From NCBI GenBank assembly GCA_031459875.1, contig JAVKHQ010000015.1, positions 10,289 to 74,288 of the forward strand: 64,000 bases of DNA, given 5' to 3'. How positions within the stretch are numbered: position 1 is the stretch's first letter; each line of letters starts with the position of its first letter. Positions 13,968-47,597 of the stretch are shown one piece after another. The notes below the pieces were generated by a model, which made no database searches, was not told where the DNA came from, and was given only the letters and a program-made list of their open reading frames with translations. Made by a program: the position numbers and the translations under genes. The DNA comes from Candidatus Fervidifonticultor sextus (GTDB lineage Bacteria; Sysuimicrobiota; Sysuimicrobiia; Sysuimicrobiales; Humicultoraceae).

Positions 13968-15242
13968 ATGCTGGACCTCAAGAAGATCCGGGAAGATCCG
14001 GAGAGGTTCAAGGCCGGTTTGCGCAAGCGAGGCCGCGACCCCCGCGCCATCGACGAGGTCCTCGAGGCCGACCGCCGGCGCCGCAGCCTGCTGGCCGATG
14101 TGGAGCGGTTGCGGGCCGAGCAGAACCGCGCTTCCGCCGAGATCCCGAGACTGAGCGGGCCGGATCGGGAGTCTCGGATCGGCGAGATGCGGGCCCTCGC
14201 CGCGCGGATCCGCGCTCTGGAGCCCGAGGTGTCGCGGGTCGAAGCCGAACTGGATGCGCTGCTGCGCACGCTGCCCAACCATCCCGACGAGACCGTGCCC
14301 GAAGGCGTGGATGCGTCCCAGAACGTGGTGGTCCGCACCTGGGGCGAACCGCCCGTCTTCGACTTCCCTCCGCTGGATCACGTCGACCTCGGGACGCGCC
14401 TGGGCATTCTCGACTTCGAGCGGGGCGCGAAGGCGTCGGGGTCGCGCTTCTACTATCTGAAAGGTGACGGCGTCCTGCTGGAGATGGCCCTGGCCCGCCT
14501 GGCGCTCGACCTGCTGGCCGCCGAGGGGTTTGTGCTGGTGGAGACCCCGATGCTGGTGCGCAGTGGCGTCATCACCGGCGCGTGGGGTGGCGTCGCGCTG
14601 GACACCCAGCAGACGTACAAGATCGAGGACGAGGACCTGGCGCTGATCGGGACCAGCGAGCAGAGCCTGGCCGCCTATCACATGGACGAGACCCTGGACG
14701 CCGCCCTGCTGCCCCTGCGCTACGCGGGCATCTCCTGGTGCTTCCGTCGCGAGGCCGGTTCGTACGGCCGGGACATCCGCGGGCTGTACCGCGTGCACCA
14801 GTTCTTCAAGATCGAGATGTTCTCGTTCGCGCACCCCGACCGGTCGGCCGAGGAACACGAGTACCTGGTGAGCCTGGAGGAGCGCTTCGTGCGGACGCTG
14901 GGGCTCCCCCACCGGGTCGTGTTGCTGTGCGGCGCCGACCTGGGGTCGGCCATGGCCAAGACCTACGATGTCGAGACCTGGATGCCGGGGCGCGGCGGCT
15001 ACGGTGAGACGCACTCGTGCAGCAACGCCGCCGACTTCCAGGCCCGCCGCCTGGGGATCCGGTTCCGCGAGGGAGCGCGGGGCGGGACCGACTACGTGCA
15101 CACGCTTAACGGCACCCTGGTGGCCACCAGCCGGGCCCTGATCGCCGTGCTGGAGAACGGCCAGCAACCCGACGGCAGCGTGCGGATTCCCGAGGCCCTC
15201 GTGCCCTACATGGGAGGCCGGACCGTGCTCGTGCCCACGTAA
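13968..15242 (+). CDS. serS: Serine--tRNA ligase
   Basis: MLDLKKIRE coiled-coil arm, LIGTSEQ, CFRREAGSYGRDIRGLYRVHQF, SCSN..DFQARR, HTLNGT. Confidence 0.97.
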   Translation: MLDLKKIREDPERFKAGLRKRGRDPRAIDEVLEADRRRRSLLADVERLRAEQNRASAEIPRLSGPDRESRIGEMRALAARIRALEPEVSRVEAELDALLRTLPNHPDETVPEGVDASQNVVVRTWGEPPVFDFPPLDHVDLGTRLGILDFERGAKASGSRFYYLKGDGVLLEMALARLALDLLAAEGFVLVETPMLVRSGVITGAWGGVALDTQQTYKIEDEDLALIGTSEQSLAAYHMDETLDAALLPLRYAGISWCFRREAGSYGRDIRGLYRVHQFFKIEMFSFAHPDRSAEEHEYLVSLEERFVRTLGLPHRVVLLCGADLGSAMAKTYDVETWMPGRGGYGETHSCSNAADFQARRLGIRFREGARGGTDYVHTLNGTLVATSRALIAVLENGQQPDGSVRIPEALVPYMGGRTVLVPT

Positions 15243-15249
15243 GGCGGGC

Positions 15250-16074
15250 ATGCAGGTCTCCCTCTACGTGGCGGCGTCCGGGTCGAGGTTCTGGGCGGCC
15301 TCGACCTCGATGAGCCTGGCCGAGGTCATGGCGCGTGCCGCGGACCTCGGCTACGACGCCATCGAGATCATGCCGCGGGCTGCAGGCGACCCCGACCCCG
15401 ACGTCCTGCGCGCCACAGCCGCGCGATACGGCCTGACCGTCACCGCCGTGGCCTCAGGGTTCGTCGCGATCGAGCAGGGCTTGACCTTCACACACCCTGA
15501 TGGGAAGGTCCGGCGCCGGGCCGTCGAGGCGGTGCGGGCCTGCATCGCCGACGCCCGGCGCGCCGGGGCGTCGTTTGTTTCCATCGGCCCTGTGAGGGGA
15601 AAATTGCAGGCCGGGATGGATCCCGCCGTCGCCCTGGAACACCTGATCGCGTGCCTCCGGGCCTGCGGGCTCACCGCCGGCAAGATGGGGATTACCCTGA
15701 CGGTCGAGCCGGGCAACCGCTACGAGACGGACTTCATTCACACCGTGGACGAGGCCATAGCCTTCCTGGAGACGCTCGGGCTTCCGTCCGTGCGCCTGCA
15801 GGCCGACACGTTCCACATGAACATCGAGGAGGGCTCGCTGGCCGGCGCGATCCGCCGGGCCGCGCCGTACTTGGCCCACGTGCACCTGGCAGACAGCAAC
15901 CGGCGCGCGCCGGGCTGGGGACACCTCGACTTCGAGGCGGTCATCGCCGCGTTGCGCGAGATCGCCTACCGCGGCGGCATCGGCCTGGAGATCCTGTTCG
16001 AGCCCGACTTCGAGTCCGCGGCCCGTCAGGGGATCCGCTTCGTGCGCGACCGGTTCGACGGCCGGGCATCGTAG
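15250..16074 (+). CDS. Sugar phosphate isomerase/epimerase family TIM-barrel protein
   Basis: EPGNRYE, DTFHMNIEE, HVHLADSNRRAPGWGHLDF. Confidence 0.88.
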   Translation: MQVSLYVAASGSRFWAASTSMSLAEVMARAADLGYDAIEIMPRAAGDPDPDVLRATAARYGLTVTAVASGFVAIEQGLTFTHPDGKVRRRAVEAVRACIADARRAGASFVSIGPVRGKLQAGMDPAVALEHLIACLRACGLTAGKMGITLTVEPGNRYETDFIHTVDEAIAFLETLGLPSVRLQADTFHMNIEEGSLAGAIRRAAPYLAHVHLADSNRRAPGWGHLDFEAVIAALREIAYRGGIGLEILFEPDFESAARQGIRFVRDRFDGRAS

Positions 16075-16092
16075 CCGCCTGGGAGGCGCGGT

Positions 16093-17019
16093 TCACCCCT
16101 CGGCAGCGGCGCCCTGCCCCCACGCGCTCATCCGCGGCCGGATGAAGTCGCGACCGAAGCAGATCTCCCCGTCGATGTCGTCGTAGGTCCCCGCCACGTC
16201 GATGTTGGCGAAGCCCTGGTACCCGACCTTGCGTAGCGCCCGCAGGGTGCTCTCCCAGGGGACCTGGCCTCTGCCCGGAGCCCAGTGGTAGTCGAAGACC
16301 CCATCGTTGTCGGCCAGGTGCACCAGGAAGATCCGCCCGGCCAGCTTCTCGATGGCGACGGGGAGGATCTCTTTCTGGACGAAGAAGTGAGCGGTGTCGA
16401 AGACGACGCCCAGGGCCGACGAGCCTGCGGCCTCCATGAGCCGCCGCGCCCCGTCGGCGGTGCTCACCATTTCGTAGGGCCGGACCTCCATGGCCAGACG
16501 CATCCGGGCCTGCGCGGCCACCTCCGCCATCGTGCCGATGGTGTTCACATACTGCGCCCACGCGTGCTCCCAGCGAAACGTGGGCGGGATCTCCACATTC
16601 ACAGGGGGCGAGAAATCGTCGTAGAGTCGGCGGATCTCGACGGTCCACGACGGGTGCGGGGCAGAGTGAAAGTAGACCAGGTCGGTCCCCAGGGCCCGTG
16701 CGACCTCCAGCGACCGCTTGAGGCCTTCGGTGGCCCGGCGGCGGGTGGCCGGATCCTCGCTGATGACCAGGTGACGGAGGAAGCCCGCCTCGAAGGCGCT
16801 GACCGCCACACCACAATCCCGCCACCGCGCGGCACAGCGGCGGAGCGCCTCCAGGTCAGAAAAGTCTCTCGCCAGATGCTCCTGGCTGAACGCGGCGACC
16901 TCAATGCCCGCGAAGCCGCACCGGGCAGCCCAGTCGGCGAGAGCGTCGTGCTGCGCGAGATCGGGCTCACCCTGGAAATGGGTTCGAGCGTAGGCCACCG
17001 TCACGCCGAGGTGCACCAT
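16093..17019 (-). CDS. Sugar phosphate isomerase/epimerase family protein
   Basis: LAMEVRP, VFDTAHF, VHLADNDG..HWAPGRGQVPW, GYQG. Confidence 0.82.
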   Translation of the reverse strand: MVHLGVTVAYARTHFQGEPDLAQHDALADWAARCGFAGIEVAAFSQEHLARDFSDLEALRRCAARWRDCGVAVSAFEAGFLRHLVISEDPATRRRATEGLKRSLEVARALGTDLVYFHSAPHPSWTVEIRRLYDDFSPPVNVEIPPTFRWEHAWAQYVNTIGTMAEVAAQARMRLAMEVRPYEMVSTADGARRLMEAAGSSALGVVFDTAHFFVQKEILPVAIEKLAGRIFLVHLADNDGVFDYHWAPGRGQVPWESTLRALRKVGYQGFANIDVAGTYDDIDGEICFGRDFIRPRMSAWGQGAAAEG

Positions 17020-17184
17020 CTGCCTCCCGAGGCTGATCTGCGGGCCGGAGGAGAAGTTCGCGGGTACCCGGGCGCTGCTCCTGGTGAAGGGGTGGGCGCG
17101 CCCGGCCAGAAAGAGTACAGGTGGGCCAGCATGTGTGGGTGGGGCGTACCATTCCAGAGCCGGTAGCAGCCGGCAGAGGGGATC

Positions 17185-17342
17185 GACGGTCGTTGATCCG
17201 TTACGGCATGGAGGCGGAAGGGGTGCCGCTGACGGTGGACCAGCCCGACCCCAGGCACGTCCTGCCCCACCGCGAGGGGGAGCGGGTGACCCTCATCCTC
17301 CCTCCTGACGCTCACTTCCTGCCCGCCGACGCCAGGCGATGA
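17185..17342 (+). pseudogene. Remnant: C-terminal TOBE-like end of an ABC-transporter ATPase
   Basis: SLIRYGMEAEGVPLTVDQPDPRHVLPHREGERVTLILP resembles PotA/MalK-type C-termini; no ATPase core upstream. Confidence 0.45.
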
Positions 17343-17384
17343 TCACCCGGGGACAGGTCAATCTACCGGTGTTGGGAGGCCAGC

Positions 17385-18758
17385 GTGGCTGATCAGAGCA
17401 CAAGCCGATTTGCCATCGAAGGGGACATGAACCTGACCCCCCGCCGGGCCGAGTGGGCCCGACGACACATCGACCCGCAGACCCGCCACTGGCTGGAGGA
17501 AGATGCCCGATATTTCCTCCACCAGGCGCTGTCGACGCCCTGCCTGAACGTCTTGGGGCGCTGCGAGGGGATCTACATCGAGGATCTCGGGGGCCGCCGG
17601 TACATGGACTTCCACGGCAACAGCGTGCACCAGGTGGGATTCGGGCATCCCCGGGTGATCGAGGCGATCAAACGACAGCTGGACCGGCTGTCCTTCTGCA
17701 CGCGACGTTACACCAACATCCCGGCTGTTTCGCTGGCCAGGAAACTGGCCGAGATCACCCCGGGGCATTTGGGCAAATCGCTGTTCTGTCCCAATGGGGC
17801 CGCAGCCATCGGCATGGCCCTCCGGCTCGCGCGGGCGGCGACCGGACGGTTCAAGACCATCTCCATGTGGGACTCCTTCCACGGCGCGTCACTGGACGCG
17901 AGCAGCGTCGGGGGCCAGCGGATGTTCCGCGAGCAGGCCGGTCCGCTGTTGCCCGGGTCGGAGCACGTACCCCCCTACGATGCCTATCGGTGCCTGTGGG
18001 ACTGCGGCGGTCGCTGCGACCTGCGGTGCGCCCGGTACGTCGAGTATGTCCTGGAGAAGGAAGGCGATGTGGCGGCGGTGGTCGCGGAGCCCGTCCGCGG
18101 GACGGTGTCCATCCCGCCGGCCGAGTACTGGCAGGCCGTCCGCGCCGCCTGTGACCGCCACGGCGCGCTATTGATCTTCGACGAGATCCCCCACGCCCTG
18201 GGGCGGACAGGTCGGATGTTCGCCTGCGAGCACTTCGGGGTGGTCCCGGACATGCTGGTCCTGGGCAAGGGGCTGGGCGGCGGGATCTTCCCCATGGCGG
18301 CGCTGGTGACGAGGCCCGACCTGGACGTGATGGCCGACCGGGCGCTGGGCCACTTCACCCACGAGAAGAACCCGGTGGGCTGCGCGGCGGCCCTGGCCAC
18401 GATCGAGGTCATTGAGGAGGAAGGCCTCGTCGAGCACGCCCGGACCCTGGGCCAGCACGCGCTTGACCGCCTCCGGGACATGGCACAGCGCTACCCGCTT
18501 ATCGGCGACGTGCGCGGGCTCGGTCTCTTTTTGGGCATCGAACTGGTCAGAGACCGGTCAACCAGGGAACCCGCCAACGACGAGGCCGATGCGATCATGT
18601 ACCACGCCCTGGACCGGGGCCTGAGTTTCAAGGTCACCCACGGCAACATCCTGACCCTCATCCCGCCGCTCCTGATCACGCAGGCGGAGATGGATCGCGC
18701 CCTGGACATCGTCGAGGAGGCGATCGGTGCGGCCAGCCGCCGGGCCGCCGGCGGGTAG
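17385..18758 (+). CDS. pbfA: Class III PLP enzyme, probable (R)-1-hydroxy-2-aminoethylphosphonate ammonia-lyase
   Basis: N-terminal EGDMNLTPRR..W, EDARYFLHQALSTPCL, MDFHGNSVHQVGFG, SMWDSFHGASLD, GHFTHEKNP match my recollection of PbfA. Confidence 0.75.
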   Translation: MADQSTSRFAIEGDMNLTPRRAEWARRHIDPQTRHWLEEDARYFLHQALSTPCLNVLGRCEGIYIEDLGGRRYMDFHGNSVHQVGFGHPRVIEAIKRQLDRLSFCTRRYTNIPAVSLARKLAEITPGHLGKSLFCPNGAAAIGMALRLARAATGRFKTISMWDSFHGASLDASSVGGQRMFREQAGPLLPGSEHVPPYDAYRCLWDCGGRCDLRCARYVEYVLEKEGDVAAVVAEPVRGTVSIPPAEYWQAVRAACDRHGALLIFDEIPHALGRTGRMFACEHFGVVPDMLVLGKGLGGGIFPMAALVTRPDLDVMADRALGHFTHEKNPVGCAAALATIEVIEEEGLVEHARTLGQHALDRLRDMAQRYPLIGDVRGLGLFLGIELVRDRSTREPANDEADAIMYHALDRGLSFKVTHGNILTLIPPLLITQAEMDRALDIVEEAIGAASRRAAGG

Positions 18759-18781
18759 TGGTCAGTCGGCGATCGCCAGGG

Positions 18782-20212
18782 CTACGTGGCCCCCCATTTC
18801 TTCAGGTAGTCGCCGAAGAGGTCCTCGTCGGTGGGCACGTACTCCTGGACCGGGACGGCCAGCCACGTGTAGTTCAGGAAGTGCCGCCAGTTGATGTTGT
18901 CGCTGGTCATATTCCCGGCCCACGTCCCGCATCCCAGGCTCTCCGTCCACGGTTGCCCGCACGTCCATCCCCCGCTGTTCATCACGTGGGGCATGTTGCA
19001 GATCACGCGGCCCACCTTCGCCCGCAGGGCCAGTTGCTCCATGCGGTCCGCCCGGGCGGTGTGGATCGAGGCGGAGTGCCCGATCCCCGAGAACTGGAGG
19101 ATCCGATCGAGACGGTCCAGCATCTCGTCGAAGTCCCTCCACCTCCACACGGTCAGGACCAGGCTCAACTTCTCGCCGGAAAACCGGTCCTCGGGGCCGA
19201 TCTGCTCCCCGAGCACCATCAAGAACCGCGTGCCGGCGGGGATCGTGATCCCGGCGGCGCCCGCGATGACCTCCACGGCCCTCCCGATCACGTCGCGGTT
19301 CAGCGTCCGCCCGTCGGGCCACAGCGTCGTGCGCAGCCGCTCGCGTTCTTCGGTGGTGCACAGGTACCCGCCCTCGGCCCTGAGGGCCTCCATCATGCGG
19401 TCGTAGACGTCCTCGTGGATGGCGACGGCGTTCTCGGAGGAACACGATGTGGAGTTGTTGGCGGTCTTGGACCGTACGATCTTCTTGGCCGCGGCGACCA
19501 GATCGGCGGTCTCGTCCACGATGGACACCACGTTGCCCGCGCCCACAGTGTGGGCCGGCTTGCCGGCCGCGTAGACCACCTTGACCAGGGCGGCGCCCCC
19601 CGTGGCCACCACGAAGTCCACGTGGCGCATCAACTCCTGGGTCTTCTCGTTGGAGGGGTTCCGGATGCACTGGAACAGGTCGGGCGGCGCCCCGATGCGC
19701 GCCAGGGCGCGCCGCCCGATCTCCACGGTCTCGAAGGACGTGCGTCGGGTCCGGGGATGGGGGGAGCAGATCATGGCGTTCCTGGTCTTCAGCAGGCTGA
19801 GGCCGATGGTGCAGACCGTCCCCTCCGGGTTGGTCATGGGGACGACGTTGGCCACCACGCCGATGGGTTTGGCGTAGATCTTCAGGCCCCGGTCCGGGTC
19901 CTCGCGCACCAGCCCGCAGGTCTTCGCCCCGCGGAAGTCCCAGAGGGTCCCCCGGACTTTGTTCCGGACCTTGTTGACCTTGTCCTCGTAGACCCCGATC
20001 TTGCCTTCTTCGACGGCCAGCGCCGCCACGGCCCGGGCGTTGGCTTCCTTCTGCCACTCCCACCCCACGGCGGCGACCATCTCGTCCACCTGTTCCTGGG
20101 ACCAGTGCTCGATGGTCTCGAAGGCCCGTCTGGCCCGCCGGTACATCTCCTGGATGTCGTCCTCGGGGGCCTCTGCGGCATGCGTCTCTGTAGCGTCCCT
20201 AGGCAGCGTCAT
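18782..20212 (-). CDS. CoA-acylating aldehyde dehydrogenase (SauS/EutE-like)
   Basis: AKPIGVVANVVPMTNP, VATGG, VGAGN, catalytic TSCSSEN, SGEKLS, GHSASIH, LGCGTWAGN. Confidence 0.85.
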   Translation of the reverse strand: MTLPRDATETHAAEAPEDDIQEMYRRARRAFETIEHWSQEQVDEMVAAVGWEWQKEANARAVAALAVEEGKIGVYEDKVNKVRNKVRGTLWDFRGAKTCGLVREDPDRGLKIYAKPIGVVANVVPMTNPEGTVCTIGLSLLKTRNAMICSPHPRTRRTSFETVEIGRRALARIGAPPDLFQCIRNPSNEKTQELMRHVDFVVATGGAALVKVVYAAGKPAHTVGAGNVVSIVDETADLVAAAKKIVRSKTANNSTSCSSENAVAIHEDVYDRMMEALRAEGGYLCTTEERERLRTTLWPDGRTLNRDVIGRAVEVIAGAAGITIPAGTRFLMVLGEQIGPEDRFSGEKLSLVLTVWRWRDFDEMLDRLDRILQFSGIGHSASIHTARADRMEQLALRAKVGRVICNMPHVMNSGGWTCGQPWTESLGCGTWAGNMTSDNINWRHFLNYTWLAVPVQEYVPTDEDLFGDYLKKWGAT

Positions 20213-21060
20213 GAGGTGCGATCCTCCGGTTTCGGAACGGGTCGGTCCGGGATTCCATCGTAGTACCTGGGGCCCTGGAGGGAAAGGTCGAGGAGGTTCA
20301 CCATCTTCGTGGACGTCGACGCCCGCCAGGCCTTCTCGCGGGTCATCTCTTCGATGGCGTGGGCGGCGCAGCTGAACCCCCGGCAGAGAACACCGATCGC
20401 CCAGGCCGCCAGCGGGCTGAACCCCATGTCCATGAAGACCGAATTGGCACCACCGATGACGTTGGTGTAGACCCGTTTGCCGTTGATCCGCTCATAGGCT
20501 TTCTCGACCTCGATCTGCAGGTCGTGGAACCATCCGGTCAGCCCCAGTTCCCGGGCCTTCTTCATGATGCGGATGGCCCGCGGGTCGCCGTGGACGTGCT
20601 GGGGCTGCCCCAGGCCCATGATCCGCCGGCCCGCGTGTTCCTTCACGAGGATCTCAGCCGTCTGCTCTACGGTCCAGCCGGCTTCCTGAGCCCGCCGCCG
20701 GTACTCGTGGACCATCATGCCGTGCAGGTGGCCGGGGCCGTGGGCCTCGCCGAACGTCATGATTCCGGCCGCGATGGCCGCGTTCAGCGGGGGGCGCCCG
20801 GCGGCGCAGCTGCGCGCCGTGAGCGTGGACGGCGACATGGCGTGTTCCATGAACTCCACCATGAAGAAGTTCATCATCTTCTCTTCGTTGATGGAGGGGA
20901 GGCGGCCCTGAAAGAGGAGGAAGACCGCGGCCGCGAAACTCCACCCCGCTTCGGCCAGTTCCGTCGTGTCGTATCCGTGCAGGACGATCCTGTCGGCGGT
21001 CTTGTACGAAATGGCACTCTGCCAGTGAAACGGCTCGCGCTCGGTGGTGACCTCATCCAT
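20209..21060 (-). CDS. Citrate-synthase-fold protein (citryl-CoA lyase-like), catalytically divergent
   Basis: WQSAIS..IVLHGY, EHAMSPS, AIAAGIMTFGEAHG, MGLGQPQH..DPR, YTNVIGG. Confidence 0.75.
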   Translation of the reverse strand: MDEVTTEREPFHWQSAISYKTADRIVLHGYDTTELAEAGWSFAAAVFLLFQGRLPSINEEKMMNFFMVEFMEHAMSPSTLTARSCAAGRPPLNAAIAAGIMTFGEAHGPGHLHGMMVHEYRRRAQEAGWTVEQTAEILVKEHAGRRIMGLGQPQHVHGDPRAIRIMKKARELGLTGWFHDLQIEVEKAYERINGKRVYTNVIGGANSVFMDMGFSPLAAWAIGVLCRGFSCAAHAIEEMTREKAWRASTSTKMVNLLDLSLQGPRYYDGIPDRPVPKPEDRTS

Positions 21061-21145
21061 CTCGTCTCGCTTCTCCTTTGCTGGATGTCGTCCGGTCCTC
21101 TTGGGATGCTCTGCGACCGCTCCGCTTCGGGCGGGCGGTGTCCGG

Positions 21146-21718
21146 TCAGCTCGGCGTGCGCTCCACCTCCTCTCCGGCCGCATGGGGGAAGGCGATGCCC
21201 AGTTCCTGCATCGTCCTCCGGCACCGTTCCAGACGTGCCCCTCCGGTCGGCAGCCCGTGGAGGTAGCCGTCCAGGGCGTCGGCGTCCTTGAGGAGTTCCG
21301 CCAGGGAATCGTCCGATGTGACGCCTTTCTCGCTGTGCCTGGCCACGGCCTCCAGAATCCGGGACAGCTCCTCGTCGGTGATCGGAGGCAGGCCCGCCGC
21401 CAGGTCCCTGTGGTACCTGGCCAGGAACTCCCGAATGTGGGTTTCGGCCACTGCGGCGTGATCCGCCCGCCTCCCGGTCATGACGGTCCCCAGGTCGTGG
21501 AGCGCGGCGGCGATGCCGGCGAGTTCGGGGTCGAGCCCGCGGCGCATCGCCAGCAGTTTGGCCAGTTGCGAGCTCGAATACATGTGCATGATGCTCCAGC
21601 GTACCGGCAGCTCACGGTCGCGGTCGCTGAGGTCCCTCATGACCGCCAGCAGTCCCGAGAGGATCCGGTTGAGCCTCCTGACGGCGAGCCGGGCGGGGGG
21701 TGATGACGGGTCCTGCAT
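21146..21718 (-). CDS. HD-domain metal-dependent phosphohydrolase
   Basis: H...AALHD...HA...ARHS...LKDAD; RBS AGGAG. Confidence 0.82.
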   Translation of the reverse strand: MQDPSSPPARLAVRRLNRILSGLLAVMRDLSDRDRELPVRWSIMHMYSSSQLAKLLAMRRGLDPELAGIAAALHDLGTVMTGRRADHAAVAETHIREFLARYHRDLAAGLPPITDEELSRILEAVARHSEKGVTSDDSLAELLKDADALDGYLHGLPTGGARLERCRRTMQELGIAFPHAAGEEVERTPS

Positions 21719-21770
21719 CGTTTGTCTCCTCGACGGTCGCCCGCATTATGCAGGTCAGCCGCTCATAATG

Positions 21771-21812
21771 TCAAATAAGATAATCTTGGAAATTCATTAG
21801 ATTTTCTGAAAT
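21771..21812. promoter_or_regulatory. Probable LysR binding sites in divergent promoter region
   Basis: AT-rich island with imperfect dyads ATAAG-N5-CTTGG and ATTAG-N5-CTGAA between divergent HD and LysR genes. Confidence 0.55.
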
Positions 21813-21836
21813 CGGCGGACGTGGGGGTGACTCCGG

Positions 21837-22793
21837 ATGGGCGTCGGACGTCGGAGGCCGGGCCGGGACCTTCCCTTGGGGTCGCTGCGGACGTTTCACC
21901 TGGTTGCGGCCCACCAGAGCTTTAGCGCGGCCGCGGCTCACCTGGGGATCACGCAGCCGGCCGTCACGCAGCAGATCCGGCGCCTGGAGGAGGCGCTGGG
22001 GGTCCAGCTCTTCTACCGGGACGGTCGGAGGGTGGCCCTGACCGAGGTGGGCCTGACCCTCGAATCCTACGCCGGGCGCATCTTTCACCTGGTGGATGCC
22101 GCCCGGGACGCGCTGGAGGGCGCATCAGGCCTCCAGACTGGCCACCTGCGTGTGGGCGCCAGCCGCACCGCGGGCGCCTACTACGTGGCCGCCCTGCTGG
22201 ACCGGTTCAAACGGCGTTACCCGGGGGTCCGGGTCAGCCTCTCGGTGGGGAACTCCCAGACGATTCTGGCCGGCATCCAGGACTTCACCTTTCACGTCGG
22301 CCTTGTCGCCGGCGCCCCCGACGACCCGCGGCTGGCCTCGCTGCCTGTGATCCGCGACCGCATGGTGGTCGTCGTCCCGCGGGGGCACCGGCTGGCCGGT
22401 CGGCGCCGCCTGGCGGTGGAAGATCTGGTGGGGTGTCCGCTGGTCATGCGCGAGCCGGGGTCGAACACCCGCTCCCTCGCTGAGCGCGCCTTCCAGGCCC
22501 GCGGCGTGGCGGCGGACCCGGCGATGGAACTGGAGAGCAACGACGCCATCAAGCGCGCCGTGGCCGACGGCATCGGGATCGCGCTGATGGCCCGGGCGGC
22601 GGTGGCCCAGGACCTGGCCAGCGGGCGCCTGGTGGCCCGTCCGCTCCAGCCACCGCTGTACCTGGACTTCTCCCTGGTCTACCACCGCGATCGGCTGCCC
22701 TCACCCTTGCTGGCGGCCTTCCTGGCGCTGCTGCCGAAGCGTGCCGCGCGAGCCGGGCAGGGGAAGGCGCCGTCGCACCTCGTGGTAGACTAG
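21837..22793 (+). CDS. LysR family transcriptional regulator
   Basis: SFSAAAAHLGITQPAVTQQIRRLEEALGVQLF HTH; LVMREPGSNTR. Confidence 0.95.
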   Translation: MGVGRRRPGRDLPLGSLRTFHLVAAHQSFSAAAAHLGITQPAVTQQIRRLEEALGVQLFYRDGRRVALTEVGLTLESYAGRIFHLVDAARDALEGASGLQTGHLRVGASRTAGAYYVAALLDRFKRRYPGVRVSLSVGNSQTILAGIQDFTFHVGLVAGAPDDPRLASLPVIRDRMVVVVPRGHRLAGRRRLAVEDLVGCPLVMREPGSNTRSLAERAFQARGVAADPAMELESNDAIKRAVADGIGIALMARAAVAQDLASGRLVARPLQPPLYLDFSLVYHRDRLPSPLLAAFLALLPKRAARAGQGKAPSHLVVD

Positions 22794-22822
22794 AGGTGGA
22801 TCGACCGAAGGGAGGAGTGCGT

Positions 22823-24133
22823 ATGGGTCGACCGCCATGGTGGGGCGTCTTGCTCGTCCTCCTGCTCTTGGTCGCCGGGCTTCCAGGAGCGTTCGCCCAA
22901 CCCAAGACCACGATCACGATCTGGTATCCGGCTGGCGATATCACCGCCAGCGCGTTTCATTTCCGCGATCCGACCCTGTTCCTGCCGTTCGAAGTCGCCC
23001 ACAACGTCAAGGTGGAACCCGTGGCGCTGGTCTACGACACGATGCAGCAGAAGATCTTCGCGGCGGCTGCGGCCAGAGATGTCGCGGACATTCTCTTCGT
23101 GGACCAGTCGTGGGTACCGGGATTCCTCAAAGAGGACATGCTGGAGCCGGTGGACCCCGCCAAGGCCAGGCGGTGGCTGGACTCGGTGTCCCCGGAGATG
23201 GTGGAGCTGTCCGATTACGGCGGCGGGAAGATGTTTGGCTACCCCCAGTACGGCATCGACGTCTACGGGATCACGTGGAACAAGGCCCACTTCCGCGAGG
23301 CCGGGTTGGATCCCGAGCGGCCGCCCCAGACGTGGGATGAGCTGCGCGACTACGCCAAGCGGCTGACCGTCCGTGACGCGGCCGGGAACATCACCCGGGT
23401 CGGGTACGCCATTCGACACGTCGGGCATCCCCACGGCGTGGTGCACAAGCACCTATGGGCGATCTGGGCGGCCGGCGCCGATCTGGTGGACAACCCGCTG
23501 GCTCTCAAGGGCGGCCAGCCCAAGTTCAACAACCCTGCCGGTCGCGCGGCCCTCAAGCTCGTCCATGACATGATCTACGTGGACCGCTCGACGAGCCTGG
23601 CCTTCCCCGACCCGCGCGCGGCCTTCCTGCGGGGCATCGCCTCGATGCAGATCAGCGAGACCGTCAGCATCCGCGCCCGCCAGCCCCGCGAGGCGCCCGG
23701 CATGCCGTGGGGGACGGGATGGGGCACGGCCCTGCCGCCGGTGCCCAAGGCCGGCATGAGGCCGGTGACCAACCTCAACGCATGGATGTACACCGTACCC
23801 AGGCAGGCCAGGAACAAGGAGCTGGCCTGGAGGCTGATCGAGTGGGTCAACAGCGAGATCAAGGACTATGAGCTGGCCAAGCGGTTCGAGGCGACCCCGC
23901 GCTTCAAGGCCAACTGGGCCAAGGAACCGTTCAAGTCCGACTCCTACGCCCAGACCCTCCTGAAGATGTACCCCTATGGCCGCAAGTACCCCATCAACCT
24001 GGGCCTCAACGGCATCATGGACGCGCTGGGCGCCGCGATTCAGAACGCCTGGCACAACCGCATGTCCATCGAGGAGGCGCTTGCCCTGGCCGACCGCCAG
24101 GCCCGGCAGGCCATTCTTGACGCTGCCAAGTAG
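22823..24133 (+). CDS. ABC transporter substrate-binding protein (family 1, CUT1-like)
   Basis: Signal peptide; WNKAHFREAGLDPERPPQTWDEL; followed by two permeases. Confidence 0.9.
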   Translation: MGRPPWWGVLLVLLLLVAGLPGAFAQPKTTITIWYPAGDITASAFHFRDPTLFLPFEVAHNVKVEPVALVYDTMQQKIFAAAAARDVADILFVDQSWVPGFLKEDMLEPVDPAKARRWLDSVSPEMVELSDYGGGKMFGYPQYGIDVYGITWNKAHFREAGLDPERPPQTWDELRDYAKRLTVRDAAGNITRVGYAIRHVGHPHGVVHKHLWAIWAAGADLVDNPLALKGGQPKFNNPAGRAALKLVHDMIYVDRSTSLAFPDPRAAFLRGIASMQISETVSIRARQPREAPGMPWGTGWGTALPPVPKAGMRPVTNLNAWMYTVPRQARNKELAWRLIEWVNSEIKDYELAKRFEATPRFKANWAKEPFKSDSYAQTLLKMYPYGRKYPINLGLNGIMDALGAAIQNAWHNRMSIEEALALADRQARQAILDAAK

Positions 24134-24194
24134 CCCTGCCGGGCGCCTTGCCCCCCGCCTGTCCCGCGGAGCGACCCCCGGGGCAGGCGGGGGC

Positions 24195-25088
24195 GTCAGC
24201 AGGGTCCTCCGCCGAGCCTACCGTCGGCACTACTTCCACGCCTACCTGTTTGTCGCCCCGGTGCTGATTGCGTTTGGGCTGTTCCGGGTCTGGCCCGCTG
24301 TGCAGACGCTCTACTTCAGTCTCTTCAAAGTCGAGCTGCTGCGGGGCCAGCTGACATTTGTCGGATTGCAGAACTTCGCCGATCTGGTGGGGGACGCGAT
24401 CTTCCGGCAGGCGTTTGTCAACACCGTCATCTACGCGGCGGTCATCGTCCCCGTGGCGGCCGGCCTCGGATTGGGGCTGGCGGTCCTGTGCCACGAACCG
24501 TTCCGCGGCCGGGAGGTCCTCAAGGCCATCTACTTTGCCCCGATGGTGACCAGCACCGTCGCGGCGGCCATGGTCTGGTGGTGGCTCTACAACCCGCAGT
24601 ACGGCCTCTTCAACGTGTTCCTTCGGCTGCTGCACCTGCCGACGTCTTCGTGGTTGCTGTCCAGCACCATGGCCCTGCCTTCGATCATCCTCTTCAGTGT
24701 CTGGAAGACGCTGGGCTACAACATGGTGATCTACCTGGCAGGGCTCCAGGGAGTACCCCAGGAGTTCTACGAGGTGGCGACCCTCGACGGCGCCGGGGCC
24801 TGGCAGCGGTTCTGGCGCATCACGCTCCCGCTGCTGGCGCCGGTCACGGCCTTCATCCTCATCTACAACGGGATCTTCGCCTTTCAGGTCTTCGACCAGG
24901 TGTTCGTGCTCACGGGGGGCGGCCCGGCCAACTCCACCAACGTGGTGGTCCTGGAACTGTACCGGCAGGCGTTCCAGCGATACCGGTTCGGTTATGCCTC
25001 GGCTCAGGCCATGGTGCTCTTCCTGTTGATCCTCGGCATCACGCTCCTGCAGTTCCGCGTGAGCCGCCGGTACGAGGTGACCTACTGA
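24195..25088 (+). CDS. ABC transporter permease (CUT1-type); start codon uncertain
   Basis: YLFVAP, FVGLQNF, YLAGLQGVPQEFYEVATLDGA EAA loop; no canonical start directly upstream of the first TM segment. Confidence 0.85.
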   Translation, partial: VSRVLRRAYRRHYFHAYLFVAPVLIAFGLFRVWPAVQTLYFSLFKVELLRGQLTFVGLQNFADLVGDAIFRQAFVNTVIYAAVIVPVAAGLGLGLAVLCHEPFRGREVLKAIYFAPMVTSTVAAAMVWWWLYNPQYGLFNVFLRLLHLPTSSWLLSSTMALPSIILFSVWKTLGYNMVIYLAGLQGVPQEFYEVATLDGAGAWQRFWRITLPLLAPVTAFILIYNGIFAFQVFDQVFVLTGGGPANSTNVVVLELYRQAFQRYRFGYASAQAMVLFLLILGITLLQFRVSRRYEVTY

Positions 25089-25909
25089 TGGCGCGTCTGG
25101 CAGGACGCGCGATGGTCGTCGTGGTCCTGGCAGGCGGGGCCGTCGTCATGATCCTGCCCTTCTACTGGATGCTCGTGACGGCCGTCAGCCCGGCGCCGGA
25201 GATCACCGCCTTCCCGCCCCGCTGGGTCCCCAGCCGGATCGTCTGGGACCACTTCCGGGAGGCCTGGACGACCGCCCCCTGGCCGGTCTACTACAAGAAC
25301 AGCGCGGTGGTGGCCGTCGTCTCGGTGGGCTGCTCGATGTTCTTCGGACTATTCGCCGGCTACGCGTTCGCGGTCTACTCGTTCCCGCTCCAGACCCCCC
25401 TTTTTCTCCTCATCCTCGGCACCCTGATGGTCCCCGTCCAGGTGACGAGCGTCGCCCTCTATGTGTTGCTGGCCCGCTGGGGGCTGGTGGACACCTACAC
25501 CGGGATCCTCGCGCCGAACCTGGCCAGCGCGTTTGCGGTCTTCCTGATCCGTCAGGCGATCCGGTCGATTCCCATCGACCTGGTGGATGCGGCGCGCATG
25601 GACGGCGCCGGCGAGGTCCGGATCGTGCTCGGCATCGTGGCGCCCCTGATCAAGCCGGTGCTGGCCGCCGTGGCGATGATCCTCTTCCTCAACAGCTGGA
25701 ACGACTTCCTCTGGCCGGTCATTGTGATCAACTCGGAGCACATGCGGACCCTGCCGGTGGGCATCGCGCTCTTCAAGGACCCGTACGGGTTCATCAACTA
25801 CGGCCCGTTAATGGCGGCCACGGTGATCGCCGTCGCGCCCATGCTGGCAGCCTACGCCCTCTCGCAGCGTTTCATGATCCGCGGGGTGGCCCTCACCGGC
25901 ATGAAGTAG
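25088..25909 (+). CDS. ABC transporter permease (CUT1-type)
   Basis: ILPFYWM, IPIDLVDAARMDGA, FLNSWNDFLWP, TLPVGI. Confidence 0.92.
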   Translation: MARLAGRAMVVVVLAGGAVVMILPFYWMLVTAVSPAPEITAFPPRWVPSRIVWDHFREAWTTAPWPVYYKNSAVVAVVSVGCSMFFGLFAGYAFAVYSFPLQTPLFLLILGTLMVPVQVTSVALYVLLARWGLVDTYTGILAPNLASAFAVFLIRQAIRSIPIDLVDAARMDGAGEVRIVLGIVAPLIKPVLAAVAMILFLNSWNDFLWPVIVINSEHMRTLPVGIALFKDPYGFINYGPLMAATVIAVAPMLAAYALSQRFMIRGVALTGMK

Positions 25910-46256: not shown

Positions 46257-47597
46257 ATGGATCCCCGTGCGGCATCAGCCGTGGTCAAGGCCGACCAGGC
46301 CCATTTGATCCACCCCCTGCATCATCCCGCCGACCATGCCGAACCCCTGGTCATCGTCGAGGGTCGGGGCGCGGTCCTGCGAGACGCGGAGGGGCGAGAG
46401 TACATCGACGGTCTGGCCTCCCTGTGGAATGTGAATGCGGGTCACGGTCGGATTGAACTGGCCGAGGCGGCCGCGGACCAGATGCGCCGGCTGGCATTCA
46501 CCACCGCCTACGTGGGGTTCACCAACGAACCGGCCGTGCGCCTGGCCGAGCGGCTGCTGAGCCTGGCGTACCGTAACCTGTCGGGCGTTTACTTCACGAC
46601 TGGCGGCGCCGAGTCCAACGAGTCGGCGTTCAAGATTGCTCGTTACTACTGGAAGCGGCGGGGGATGCCCTCGAAGACCAAGGTCGTCGCGCGCCACCAC
46701 GCCTATCACGGCGTGACGATGGCGGCGATGAGTGCAACCGGGATGCCATCCTACCACAAGATGTTTCAGCCTGTCGTCCCGGGGTTCGTGCACATCATTC
46801 CGTCGTATCCCTACCGGTATCCCGGATCCGGTGCGAGCGCGCTGGAGGAAGCGATCAGGCGGGAGGGGCCCGATACGGTGGCCGCGTTCATTGCGGAGCC
46901 GGTGATGGGGGCCGGCGGCGTCATCGTGCCGACGCCGGACTACTTCCCGCAGGTCAGGGAGATCTGCGACCGCTATCAGGTCCTCTTCATCGCCGACGAG
47001 GTCATCACGGGCTTCGGCCGCACCGGCCGCTGGTTCGCCCTGGACCACTGGGGTGTGCAGCCCGACATCGTGACGTTTGCCAAGGGTGTGACCAGCGCGT
47101 ACCTGCCGCTGGGCGGCGCGATGGTGTCGCGCGATATCCACCAGGCGATCCTGGACGCACCTGCGGCCGAGCGTTTCATGCACGCGGCCACCTACTCTGG
47201 GCATCCCACCTGCTGCGCGGTGGCCCTCCGCAATTTGGAGATCCTCGAGGGAGAGGGTCTGATCGAGCGGGCGCAGGGGTTAGGGGCGCGGTTGCTGGCC
47301 GGCCTCCAGACACTGCGGGATCTGCCCGCCGTCGGGGACGTGCGCGGACTCGGGCTGATCTGCGGTGTCGAACTGGTGGCTGACAAGGCCACGAAGGCCC
47401 CGGCGGTGGACTTGGGCGGGAAAGTGCTGGCTGAGGCCAGGAAGCGGGGGCTGATCTCACGGATCCGCGTGGGGCAGGTGGGCGACTACCCGATTGGGGA
47501 CACGATCTGTCTGGCGCCACCCCTGGTCATCACCGAGGCGCAGGTGGATCGGATCGTCGAGATCATCCGCGAATCCATCCAGGCCGCCGCGGCGTGA
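46257..47597 (+). CDS. Class III (omega-amino acid/polyamine) aminotransferase
   Basis: DGLASLWNVNAGHG, AYHG, FIADEVITGFGRTG, FAKG, TYSGHP. Confidence 0.92.
   Translation: MDPRAASAVVKADQAHLIHPLHHPADHAEPLVIVEGRGAVLRDAEGREYIDGLASLWNVNAGHGRIELAEAAADQMRRLAFTTAYVGFTNEPAVRLAERLLSLAYRNLSGVYFTTGGAESNESAFKIARYYWKRRGMPSKTKVVARHHAYHGVTMAAMSATGMPSYHKMFQPVVPGFVHIIPSYPYRYPGSGASALEEAIRREGPDTVAAFIAEPVMGAGGVIVPTPDYFPQVREICDRYQVLFIADEVITGFGRTGRWFALDHWGVQPDIVTFAKGVTSAYLPLGGAMVSRDIHQAILDAPAAERFMHAATYSGHPTCCAVALRNLEILEGEGLIERAQGLGARLLAGLQTLRDLPAVGDVRGLGLICGVELVADKATKAPAVDLGGKVLAEARKRGLISRIRVGQVGDYPIGDTICLAPPLVITEAQVDRIVEIIRESIQAAAA

Follow-up and report, generated by a model that had tools for sequence, protein, structure and literature searches.

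A candidate CoA-dependent route of C2-phosphonate degradation in a hot-spring bacterium, with a citryl-CoA-lyase-fold protein as the putative C-P hydrolase

The stretch of DNA analysed here, from now on called the window, comprises 64,000 nucleotides of contig JAVKHQ010000015.1 from Candidatus Fervidifonticultor sextus. It contains an island of about 6 kb with five genes, which are pbfA, an acylating aldehyde dehydrogenase (ALDH), a protein of the citryl-CoA lyase fold (CSL), an HD-domain protein and a LysR regulator (Table 1). The region has a G+C content of about 66-69% and many shadow open reading frames, and the real genes were picked by their Pfam and NCBIfam matches. By these matches, every gene named in the initial annotation of this DNA is present at or near the position given there. 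HD, CSL and ALDH form an operon which is divergent from lysR, as had been described. The CSL open reading frame as such extends over 20209-21183, with the ATG at 21060 as its likely start, since an AAGGAG ribosome-binding site lies upstream, and the CSL stop and the ALDH start overlap as ATGA. The window stretch was found in four hot-spring metagenome DNA runs, all from one study, and no RNA run containing it is listed.

Table 1. Features of the window around the phosphonate island (positions are those of the window; bits are profile scores)
Feature	Coordinates	Strand	Remarks
IolO-like/xylose-isomerase-like TIM-barrel genes	15250-17019		part of a variable sugar locus
Island of pbfA, ALDH, CSL, HD and lysR	16941-22909		about 6 kb, between sugar TIM-barrel gene and CUT1 importer
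Remnant of PhnT2-like ABC ATPase gene, last 50 codons	17190-17339	+	tblastn, 90% identity to residues 314-363 of the L002 ATPase
pbfA	17385-18758	+	NF049939, 712.5 bits, cut-off 525
Acylating ALDH	18782-20212	-	best model SauS NF047625, 503 bits, below cut-off 600; convergent with pbfA
CSL	20209-21060	-	best matches citryl-CoA lyase subfamilies, all below cut-off
HD gene	21146-21718	-	Pfam HD only; first gene of the HD-CSL-ALDH operon
Sigma-70-like promoter, TTGACA-18-CATAAT	21745-21774	-	faces HD; overlapped by palindrome
Perfect palindrome, ATTATG-N13-CATAAT	21745-21769		overlaps HD promoter
lysR	21837-22793	+	divergent from HD; best model TIGR03339, 244.3 bits, below cut-off 341
Substrate-binding protein of CUT1 importer	22796-24133		CUT1/Ugp-Mal type
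Two permeases of CUT1 importer	up to 25909		CUT1/Ugp-Mal type
Class-III aminotransferase	46338-47573		35% identical to PbfA

The score of PbfA clearly exceeds the cut-off of its curated model, which bears out its naming, and the enzyme is predicted on this basis to make phosphonoacetaldehyde. The pbfA genes found beside the phnW clusters of the phylum share 69-72% identity with it. The ALDH was rightly read as an acylating enzyme. By whole-length homology and catalytic Cys it belongs to the CoA-acylating class of AdhE-N, EutE and SucD, and the solved structure nearest to it is that of the CoA-dependent succinate-semialdehyde dehydrogenase SucD (8cei; E 1.5e-88, residues 17-467), with which both the active-site Cys and the CSSE motif align. 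It falls short of membership in SauS (503.3 bits, and 495.9 bits for an ALDH representative from the other CSL loci, against the cut-off of 600), and it scores only 38 bits with the PhnY model TIGR03250 (cut-off 636). Since the SauS score lies above those with the acetaldehyde dehydrogenase models (AdhE 370 bits, EutE type 313 bits), and the nearest structure is SucD, both being anionic-substrate enzymes, we count these matches as support for an anionic substrate.

The window belongs to a genome of 3.05 Mb in 67 contigs, which is 96% complete. Its contig C2 encodes PhnS2, PhnT2, PhnU2 and PhnW, all above cut-off. The absence of phnW noted in the initial annotation therefore holds for the window but not for the genome, whereas the absence of phnX, phnY and phnA was borne out for both. 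In the whole genome the best matches were 28 bits for PhnX (TIGR01422, cut-off 220), 28 bits for PhnA (TIGR02335, cut-off 408) and 394 bits for PhnY (TIGR03250, cut-off 636). Profile searches for the C-P lyase protein PhnJ and for Xsc likewise gave nothing over cut-off in this genome, and tblastn at E <= 1e-5 retrieved from it no B-type CSL, no HAD hydrolase of the module and no PhnX-like HAD. Because PhnW and PbfA make phosphonoacetaldehyde, and PhnX, PhnA and PhnY are absent, the genome has no known enzyme to consume this aldehyde. A phnX or phnYA elsewhere in the genome, which could have accounted for pbfA, was thus not found.

To see the island in a wider context, the CSL protein was searched for relatives, of which 406 were obtained at E <= 1e-10. 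When one genome per species was scanned, 256 CSL loci were confirmed, of which 80 were kept, all from metagenome-assembled genomes (MAGs). Neighbours were counted by tblastn and by clustering of open reading frames, with clusters annotated from representatives; counts out of 81 are these 80 loci plus the window region. Most loci (66/80) contain a tandem CSL pair, of which the A copy is about 50% and the B copy about 35% identical to the window CSL, and an ALDH 61-77% identical to that of the window stands beside CSL in 66/80. The most frequent neighbour listed was a small HAD hydrolase (37/81), which is TIGR02253-like and not PhnX, followed by PhnW (26/81; representative 482 bits, cut-off 401), class-III aminotransferases (21/81) and LysR (15/81). 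A phosphonate-associated alcohol dehydrogenase (ADH) of the HpnZ type occurred in 13/81 (representative 351 bits, cut-off 328), PhnA in 12/81 (455 bits, cut-off 408), and a PhnX-like HAD (TIGR03351) in 11/81, its representative remaining at 168 bits against a cut-off of 219. Rarer were Nudix (9/81), PhnD-like and PhnS2-like substrate-binding proteins (SBPs; 7/81 and 6/81), the two CoA-transferase subunits (7 and 6 of 81) and MtmB-like proteins (4/81).

Altogether, one or more recognised phosphonate genes lie in the fetched flanks of 49/80 CSL loci, and PhnW, PbfA or PhnA lies near CSL in 36/80. Genes at least 55% identical to pbfA were found in 14/80 loci, and the three that were tested (L055, L058, L077) all exceeded the PbfA cut-off. 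The linkage with pbfA recurs in three different architectures of the module, namely acylating ALDH with CSL-A/B (and HAD), acylating ALDH with a single CSL (and HD), and non-acylating ALDH with CoA-transferase and a related protein that we call CSL'. The predicted co-occurrence of CSL homologues with pbfA and phnW was thereby confirmed, together with phnA, HpnZ-type ADH and phosphonate SBP genes, and the recurrence across loci and architectures excludes the reservation that pbfA might be adjacent by chance. PhnX exceeded its cut-off (TIGR01422) in 0/50 module-carrying genomes, and PhnA exceeded its cut-off in 15/50. Some units combine CoA-transferase and CSL without any ALDH (L012-L015, L019, L197, L203, L206), which fits a unit leading from an acid to a thioester and on to CSL.

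A further line of evidence comes from the phylum of the window, for which we compared 94 genomes, all of one order. Of these, 25/94 contain a CSL-family gene, yet the window type (450 bits) occurs only in G000 and G054, while the other CSLs score 210-231 bits and were preceded by CoA-transferase subunits A and B in 10/10 loci examined. The recurrent cluster consists of pbfA and lysR and, divergently, of genes for both CoA-transferase subunits, CSL', ALDH, PhnS2, PhnT2, PhnU2 and PhnW, and it contains no gene for PhnX or PhnA. In L192, L193, L195, L196, L198, L199, L200 and L201 the whole cluster is present or is truncated only where the contig ends. Unpublished genomes (G066, G074) supplied L184 and L187, which are among the 10 loci examined, and L199, and the cluster patterns are unchanged when these loci are removed. 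In L192 (G057:C1) the ALDH is of the classical non-acylating type (PF00171 523 bits, BADH-like 481, PhnY model 258 with a cut-off of 636), and PhnU2 (783 bits) and PhnW (497 bits) exceed their cut-offs. PhnX exceeded its cut-off in none of the 94 genomes. PhnW did so in 13/94, and 12 of these also carry a CSL-family gene; only G069 does not, a genome of 79% completeness with the best PhnX-like hit (173 bits). The best PhnX-like hit within the genus of the window, at 178 bits (below 220), lies in G056 (G056:C46:4254-4826), a few kb from the CUT1 importer and with an ABC ATPase and a class-III aminotransferase nearby; this genome has neither PhnW nor CSL.

Both forms of the module meet within one genus. 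G057 carries the cluster of CoA-transferase, CSL' and ALDH and is without the window-type CSL. Between G000 and G057 there is about 80% nucleotide identity, with synteny over phnS2T2U2-phnW and both flanks, and what G000 lacks is exactly the ALDH-CSL'-CoATb-CoATa-lysR block of G057 (CoATa and CoATb being the CoA-transferase subunits). The best match in G000 of the LysR of G057 is the window LysR. Within one genus, the same regulator thus faces either CoA-transferase, CSL' and ALDH or HD, CSL and acylating ALDH. As an acylating ALDH, or an ALDH together with a CoA-transferase, would both lead to phosphonoacetyl-CoA, this exchange points to CSL for the step that cleaves the C-P bond.

The CSL itself resembles lyases more closely than synthases. 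In a phmmer search the citryl-CoA lyase of Hydrogenobacter (6hxp) came first (E 2.4e-26), ahead of the citrate synthases. An AlphaFold (AF2) model (pLDDT 87.3) gave the same top match by Foldseek (E 4.5e-15, TM 0.73/0.80, 30% identity), followed by the CCL modules of ATP-citrate lyase. The best NCBIfam match, NF004869, reached 154 bits against a cut-off of 212, and the ESM Atlas returned only generic citrate-synthase or citryl-CoA-lyase cluster names. Residues were compared in alignments of 28 and 113 family members, at positions that we take to correspond to His238, His274, His320, Arg329, Asp375 and Arg401 of pig citrate synthase. In the 113 CSLs, H73, H107, Q152-P-Q-H155, D159-P-R161, N200, R227 and H234 are invariant. 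The residues at the positions of His238, His274 (H107), Arg329 and Arg401 are kept, whereas the His320 position is Q152 of the invariant QPQH, and the Asp375 position is I202, occupied by I, V or M across members, after N200. The family was thus correctly described as lacking the Asp, and its His320 is replaced as well; of the catalytic triad of citrate synthase only the His274 equivalent, H107, is present. By this comparison CSL appears to retain the enolate-stabilising and anion-binding residues and to have lost the Claisen base and the carbonyl-polarising His. Such a pattern fits the cleavage of a phosphonate in beta position to a thioester into acetyl-CoA enolate and phosphate, and not Claisen chemistry.

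The CSL' linked to CoA-transferase is also without the Asp, and shows the motifs AEHAFSPS, IGSVHGT, GFHHAQHIxDPR and LNGPG, taken from three loci (L185, L187, L190), or two without L187 from an unpublished genome. CSL-B is without H73, the QPQH motif and R161, so the A-like or single form is the likely catalytic one. In a quick tree (LG+G4, one distant outgroup, with a warning for long branches), several single-copy CSLs belong neither to clade A (support 100, stem 0.78) nor to clade B (support 100, stem 1.23), and the window clade groups with A, B and P0009 (support 97). The single form may, tentatively, predate the A/B duplication.

Taken together, we think it probable that C2-phosphonates are degraded by an undescribed hydrolytic route whose last steps the island encodes: the ALDH would produce phosphonoacetyl-CoA, and CSL would convert it to acetyl-CoA and phosphate. 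PbfA and PhnW, the latter encoded on contig C2 with the PhnS2T2U2 importer, would deliver phosphonoacetaldehyde from (R)-1-hydroxy-2-aminoethylphosphonate and 2-aminoethylphosphonate, as assigned by curated models. The acylating ALDH would then turn phosphonoacetaldehyde, CoA and NAD(P)+ into phosphonoacetyl-CoA. CSL, single and probably a homo-oligomer, would cleave its C-P bond, with the thioester carbonyl beta to phosphorus as the electron sink. In such a reaction His107 (His274 in citrate synthase) could stabilise the acetyl-CoA enolate, while His73, Arg161 and Arg227, which correspond to the oxaloacetate-carboxylate ligands of citrate synthase, could hold the phosphonate. His155 of the family-specific QPQH may act as an acid or accept the phosphoryl group. 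C-P cleavage would have no need of the Claisen base Asp375, which is absent. The form with CoA-transferase could even run as a closed loop, with acetyl-CoA as the CoA donor.

Several arguments converge on CSL. The three architectures are fed by PhnW, PbfA or HpnZ-type ADH and share only the Asp-less CSL fold, which suggests that CSL takes the C-P step that is otherwise unassigned. Put differently, every step except C-P cleavage has an enzyme, and every shared enzyme except CSL has a step. On balance we lean toward the broader view that the Asp-less citryl-CoA-lyase-fold proteins constitute a new class of C-P hydrolases acting on phosphonoacetyl-CoA. They would form a third hydrolytic branch that is CoA-dependent, oxygen-free and yields acetyl-CoA, widespread in anaerobes and thermophiles and existing in interchangeable forms, of which the window version is minimal. 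The core of this idea, including that the route is undescribed, was already put forward in the initial annotation. It has passed the computational tests proposed there, and its chemistry is deduced from fold, residues and gene context. No description of a CoA-dependent C-P route via an enzyme of the citrate synthase fold was found in the open literature, nor any match for "C-P bond" combined with citrate synthase and phosphonate catabolism, subscription journals and supplementary files being outside the search. In three papers of the Peracchi group (PMC8154272, PMC10590968 and PMC12366243), term searches found neither citrate synthase nor CoA in this sense.

A number of observations speak against this proposal. 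Phosphonoacetyl-CoA is not a known metabolite, and the one text found to mention it makes a biosynthetic prediction that did not come true. The binding of CoA by CSL is assumed from the modelled fold, and no acid or base for the protonation of the enolate is evident in the protein. Among the 80 CSL loci, 31 have no recognised phosphonate gene in the fetched flanks, several of these being short contigs or RpiR/MFS contexts. In the phylum, 13 of the 25 CSL-positive genomes are without PhnW above cut-off, and those of family f4 have class-III aminotransferases of the PRK06062 type instead. A PhnX-like HAD of about 105-155 bits, which could be a phosphonatase, is encoded in roughly half of the 50 genomes with the module. 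The PhnA genes near CSL in 12 loci indicate that phosphonoacetate is at least sometimes relevant. Moreover, the frequent phosphatase-type genes (the HAD in 37/81 loci, HD and Nudix in the window clade) are not needed by the simple scheme. Finally, as every genome is a MAG, absences have to be taken as provisional.

Other explanations of the same gene content have to be weighed. It is unlikely that phosphonoacetaldehyde itself is what CSL, or some other unrecognised protein, cleaves, with the ALDH only salvaging the acetaldehyde as acetyl-CoA and the sister ALDH and CoA-transferase doing likewise via acetate. All three architectures formally allow such a conversion of acetaldehyde to acetyl-CoA, and the acylating ALDH class includes acetaldehyde dehydrogenases, as the AdhE and EutE-type scores recall. 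Yet the citrate synthase and citryl-CoA lyase fold is known only with CoA thioesters, the ALDH sides with SauS and SucD, and CoA-transferase and CSL occur together where no ALDH is present. Activation of acetate by a CoA-transferase would also need a second thioester donor and bring no gain. A phosphohydrolase is often found beside the module, the HAD in many loci and an HD gene preceding CSL in 9/13 HD orthologues, and the two occur in alternative clades as if they were analogues. This would suit a C-P break in two steps, in which CSL performs the thioester or enolate chemistry (a C-to-O phosphoryl shift to an enol phosphate, or a transfer to His155) and HD or HAD releases the phosphate. We regard this as rather unlikely, however, because the CoA-transferase-CSL'-ALDH operons of the phylum contain no phosphatase gene, HD-Nudix pairs exist without CSL in 4/13 loci, and the HD fold is nearest to nucleotide pyrophosphohydrolases.

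The presence of PhnA in 12/81 loci, and above cut-off in 15/50 module genomes, raises the question whether CSL is a phosphonoacetyl-CoA thioesterase or CoA recycler, with the real C-P cleavage made on phosphonoacetate by PhnA or another hydrolase. Citrate synthase also hydrolyses citryl-CoA, as is well established for the family. This is quite improbable, though, since 35/50 module genomes and the genome of the window itself are without PhnA above cut-off, and hydrolysis of a thioester that the sister CoA-transferase makes from the free acid would be a futile cycle. Even less should be expected of a module acting on a sulfonate (sulfoacetaldehyde/sulfoacetyl-CoA) or on another anionic C2/C3 aldehyde, with pbfA as a neighbour for other reasons. 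Such a sulfonate substrate, allowed for in the initial annotation, could draw on SauS as the best ALDH model and on the 31/80 loci without a phosphonate marker. But the SauS score is below cut-off and the genome has no Xsc. Those neighbours that can be named are PhnW, PbfA, PhnA and SBPs of the PhnD/PhnS2 type, with no sulfonate gene recognised among the annotated neighbour-gene clusters, and pbfA is linked in three architectures. This explanation is therefore very improbable. We thus retain the cleavage of phosphonoacetyl-CoA by CSL as the preferred reading.

Within the proposed scheme, the window represents a distinct variant. In its clade (L002-L009), whose other members come from Syntrophaceae and further deltaproteobacterial MAGs with CSLs 81-83% identical, apart from L002, where CSL is 100% identical, there is one CSL, no CSL-B and no HAD. 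The HD gene lies upstream, often followed by MFS and Nudix genes. This combination of HD and a single CSL without CSL-B or HAD is a newly recognised minimal form of the module in this lineage.

The HD protein belongs to a family with 217 relatives, among them one from Kosmotoga olearia and one HD-Nudix fusion (P0217). Its invariant residues H45, H74-D75, H87, H128 and D145/147/150 form a pattern compatible with a two-metal site. The closest folds to its model (pLDDT 89.8) are 2pq7 (Z 12.8), BH1327 (11.6), YpgQ (11.2) and YqeK (11.1), which are uncharacterised or nucleotide-pyrophosphate HD hydrolases. A survey of HD linkage in 80 metagenome loci yielded 13 orthologues that are 52% or more identical and have 4 kb or more of sequence downstream. 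Of these, 9/13 were followed by the window-type CSL and 10/13 by Nudix, and none of the 8 distant HD homologues was; 4/13 were HD-Nudix pairs without CSL. HD is therefore not the constant member of the module for which it had been taken, but an accessory phosphohydrolase, linked and not obligatory. In the metagenome loci L096-L162, the Nudix gene that usually follows the HD orthologues is NudE-like. The pairing suggests, from gene order, a joint substrate of the nucleotide-diphosphate type, perhaps CoA itself or a conjugate of a nucleotide and a phosphonate. A role of HD as a PhnZ-like oxygenase is not supported. The likeness is weak and generic (Foldseek TM 0.33-0.36, E about 0.03), and PhnZ was outside the top 50 rows of the structure search, whose top rows are other HD hydrolases.

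The promoter facing HD is the only sigma-70-like site in the 6.1 kb from 16900 to 23000, where shuffled sequences give 0.4, and the palindrome that overlaps it is a candidate operator for LysR. From here LysR would control the HD-CSL-ALDH operon. The same palindrome pattern occurs about 0.1 kb after the Nudix gene in L126, L128, L129 and L152, which are HD-Nudix metagenome loci without CSL and with no LysR seen nearby. The assignment of the regulator to the aminoethylphosphonate-associated type stood in part. Its TIGR03339 score stays below the cut-off (244 against 341), but the LysR at the head of the CoAT-CSL'-ALDH-phnS2T2U2-phnW operon in the same-genus G057 shares 70.6% identity with it, and through this relative the divergent position by an operon for 2-aminoethylphosphonate catabolism is found.

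The origin of the island can be traced at its borders. The same-genus genome G056 (L209; no CSL) aligns with window positions 25913-22910 and then, 378 bp on, with 16940-13968, and G057 (L210) joins window position 15225 directly to 25961. From these junctions, pbfA, ALDH, CSL, HD and lysR are a 6-kb insertion between the sugar TIM-barrel gene, which is AP_endonuc_2/IolO-like, and the CUT1 importer (22796-25909). The importer and the TIM-barrel genes make up a variable sugar locus, which is present without the island in G056 and missing together with it in G057. The ABC importer had been taken for a part of the pathway, and we reject this, as its SBP is of the CUT1 sugar type, and the importer abuts sugar TIM-barrel genes in G056, where it exists without the module. 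The SBP has only weak UgpB and MalE matches, its PDB matches are CUT1 sugar SBPs, it did not qualify as a phosphonate SBP, and none of the 80 CSL loci contains a homologue of it.

A different importer has been lost. L002, at 95.9% nucleotide identity with the window, has 3.7 kb (L002 5087-8806) without a window counterpart, and this segment encodes an importer directly upstream of pbfA, with PhnT2, PhnU2 and PhnS2 as best models, all below cut-off. There, pbfA is the last gene of a phnS2'-U2'-T2' operon. The ATPase remnant before pbfA in the window is, judged from the alignment, the scar of a 3.7-kb deletion that removed this phnS2'-U2'-T2'-like importer. As to the other genes, CSL, ALDH and HD are 82%, 77% and 57% identical to Syntrophaceae versions, and CSL only 37-42% to the CSL' of its own phylum. 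We infer that HD, CSL and ALDH were transferred in. They look acquired from a donor of deltaproteobacterial type, apparently replacing the phylum's module of CoA-transferase, CSL' and non-acylating ALDH.

Some further genes lie close to the feeder enzymes elsewhere in the genome. Contig C48 (2218-5730) carries a second copy of phnS2T2U2, 92.5% nucleotide-identical to the C2 copy, which may have arisen by duplication or may reflect strain heterogeneity in the assembly. A malate-synthase-A-like gene (L082 10989-13346, minus strand; 290 bits, cut-off 594) is convergent with phnW. On the same contig C2 as phnS2T2U2-phnW (L083 2617-9016), there is a non-Pyl MtmB-like methyltransferase, with a corrinoid protein, a methyl-THF:corrinoid methyltransferase and a RamA/AcsV-like activase in the same stretch. 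MtmB-like genes also adjoin pbfA or phnW plus CSL in L024, L029, L056 and L070, and the association may reflect the removal, without oxygen, of methyl groups from N-methylated aminophosphonates.

A large pool of bioavailable phosphorus exists in the form of phosphonates. The enzymes known to break the C-P bond are, to our knowledge, few, namely PhnX, PhnA, PalA, C-P lyase and the PhnZ/TmpB oxygenases. If CSL is what we propose, many genomes with PhnW or PbfA but without PhnX and PhnA, which seem unable to finish the degradation of 2-aminoethylphosphonate, would carry a working route. These genomes are those of sediment sulfate reducers, Planctomycetota, Verrucomicrobiota, Chloroflexota and this hot-spring phylum. 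The route would keep the C2 unit as acetyl-CoA and need no oxygen. The citrate synthase fold would gain a new reaction, phosphonoacetyl-CoA would join metabolism, and gene surveys of phosphonate cycling would need added markers. New in this window are the form with a single CSL and HD, the within-genus swap between the modes of making the thioester, and the fact that the neighbouring importer is unrelated. The window also offers the simplest test system, with one CSL gene instead of two, in a thermophile, and with the natural swap of modules as a comparison.

Compared with known systems, the scheme is closest in its entry to the phosphonatase pathway of PhnW/PbfA and PhnX. As laid out by Zangelmi et al. 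2021 (PMC8154272), that pathway has the same feeders, the same phosphonoacetaldehyde and the same activation by a beta-carbonyl for a non-radical, non-oxidative C-P cleavage. The scheme differs from it in that PhnX is absent here, the aldehyde would be oxidised to the CoA thioester first, and the product would be acetyl-CoA and not acetaldehyde. With the PhnW-PhnY-PhnA pathway, which leads from phosphonoacetaldehyde to phosphonoacetate and on to acetate and phosphate, it would share the oxidation of the aldehyde before C-P cleavage, and the sister-module ALDH is non-acylating like PhnY. However, neither the window ALDH nor that of G057 is PhnY, and cleavage would take place on the thioester, by a protein of the citrate synthase fold. 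PhnZ acts on (R)-1-hydroxy-2-aminoethylphosphonate, which is also the substrate of PbfA, and PhnZ and TmpB have an HD domain of a size similar to that in the window. The match to HD is weak and generic, though, its nearest folds are nucleotide pyrophosphohydrolases, and its orthologues are paired or fused with Nudix.

The window ALDH is of the same class as SauS and SucD (8cei), with the same catalytic Cys and short anionic aldehydes as the common type of substrate, but in contrast to SauS it neighbours phosphonate genes and not SauT, SauU or Xsc. The sister pair of CoA-transferase and CSL' resembles the acyl-transfer cycles of malonate decarboxylase and citrate lyase, as it could turn phosphonoacetate and acetyl-CoA into phosphonoacetyl-CoA and acetate, and then the thioester into acetyl-CoA and phosphate. 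Here, the carrier would be free CoA and not an acyl-carrier-protein group, phosphate would be lost instead of CO2 or oxaloacetate, and the families are unrelated. With citryl-CoA lyase (6hxp), the CCL module of ATP-citrate lyase and citrate synthase, CSL has the fold and four retained positions in common, yet it carries Gln for His320, Ile or Val for Asp375 and a QPQH motif of its own. While those enzymes work in the tricarboxylic acid cycle or its reverse, the context of CSL is phosphonate catabolism.

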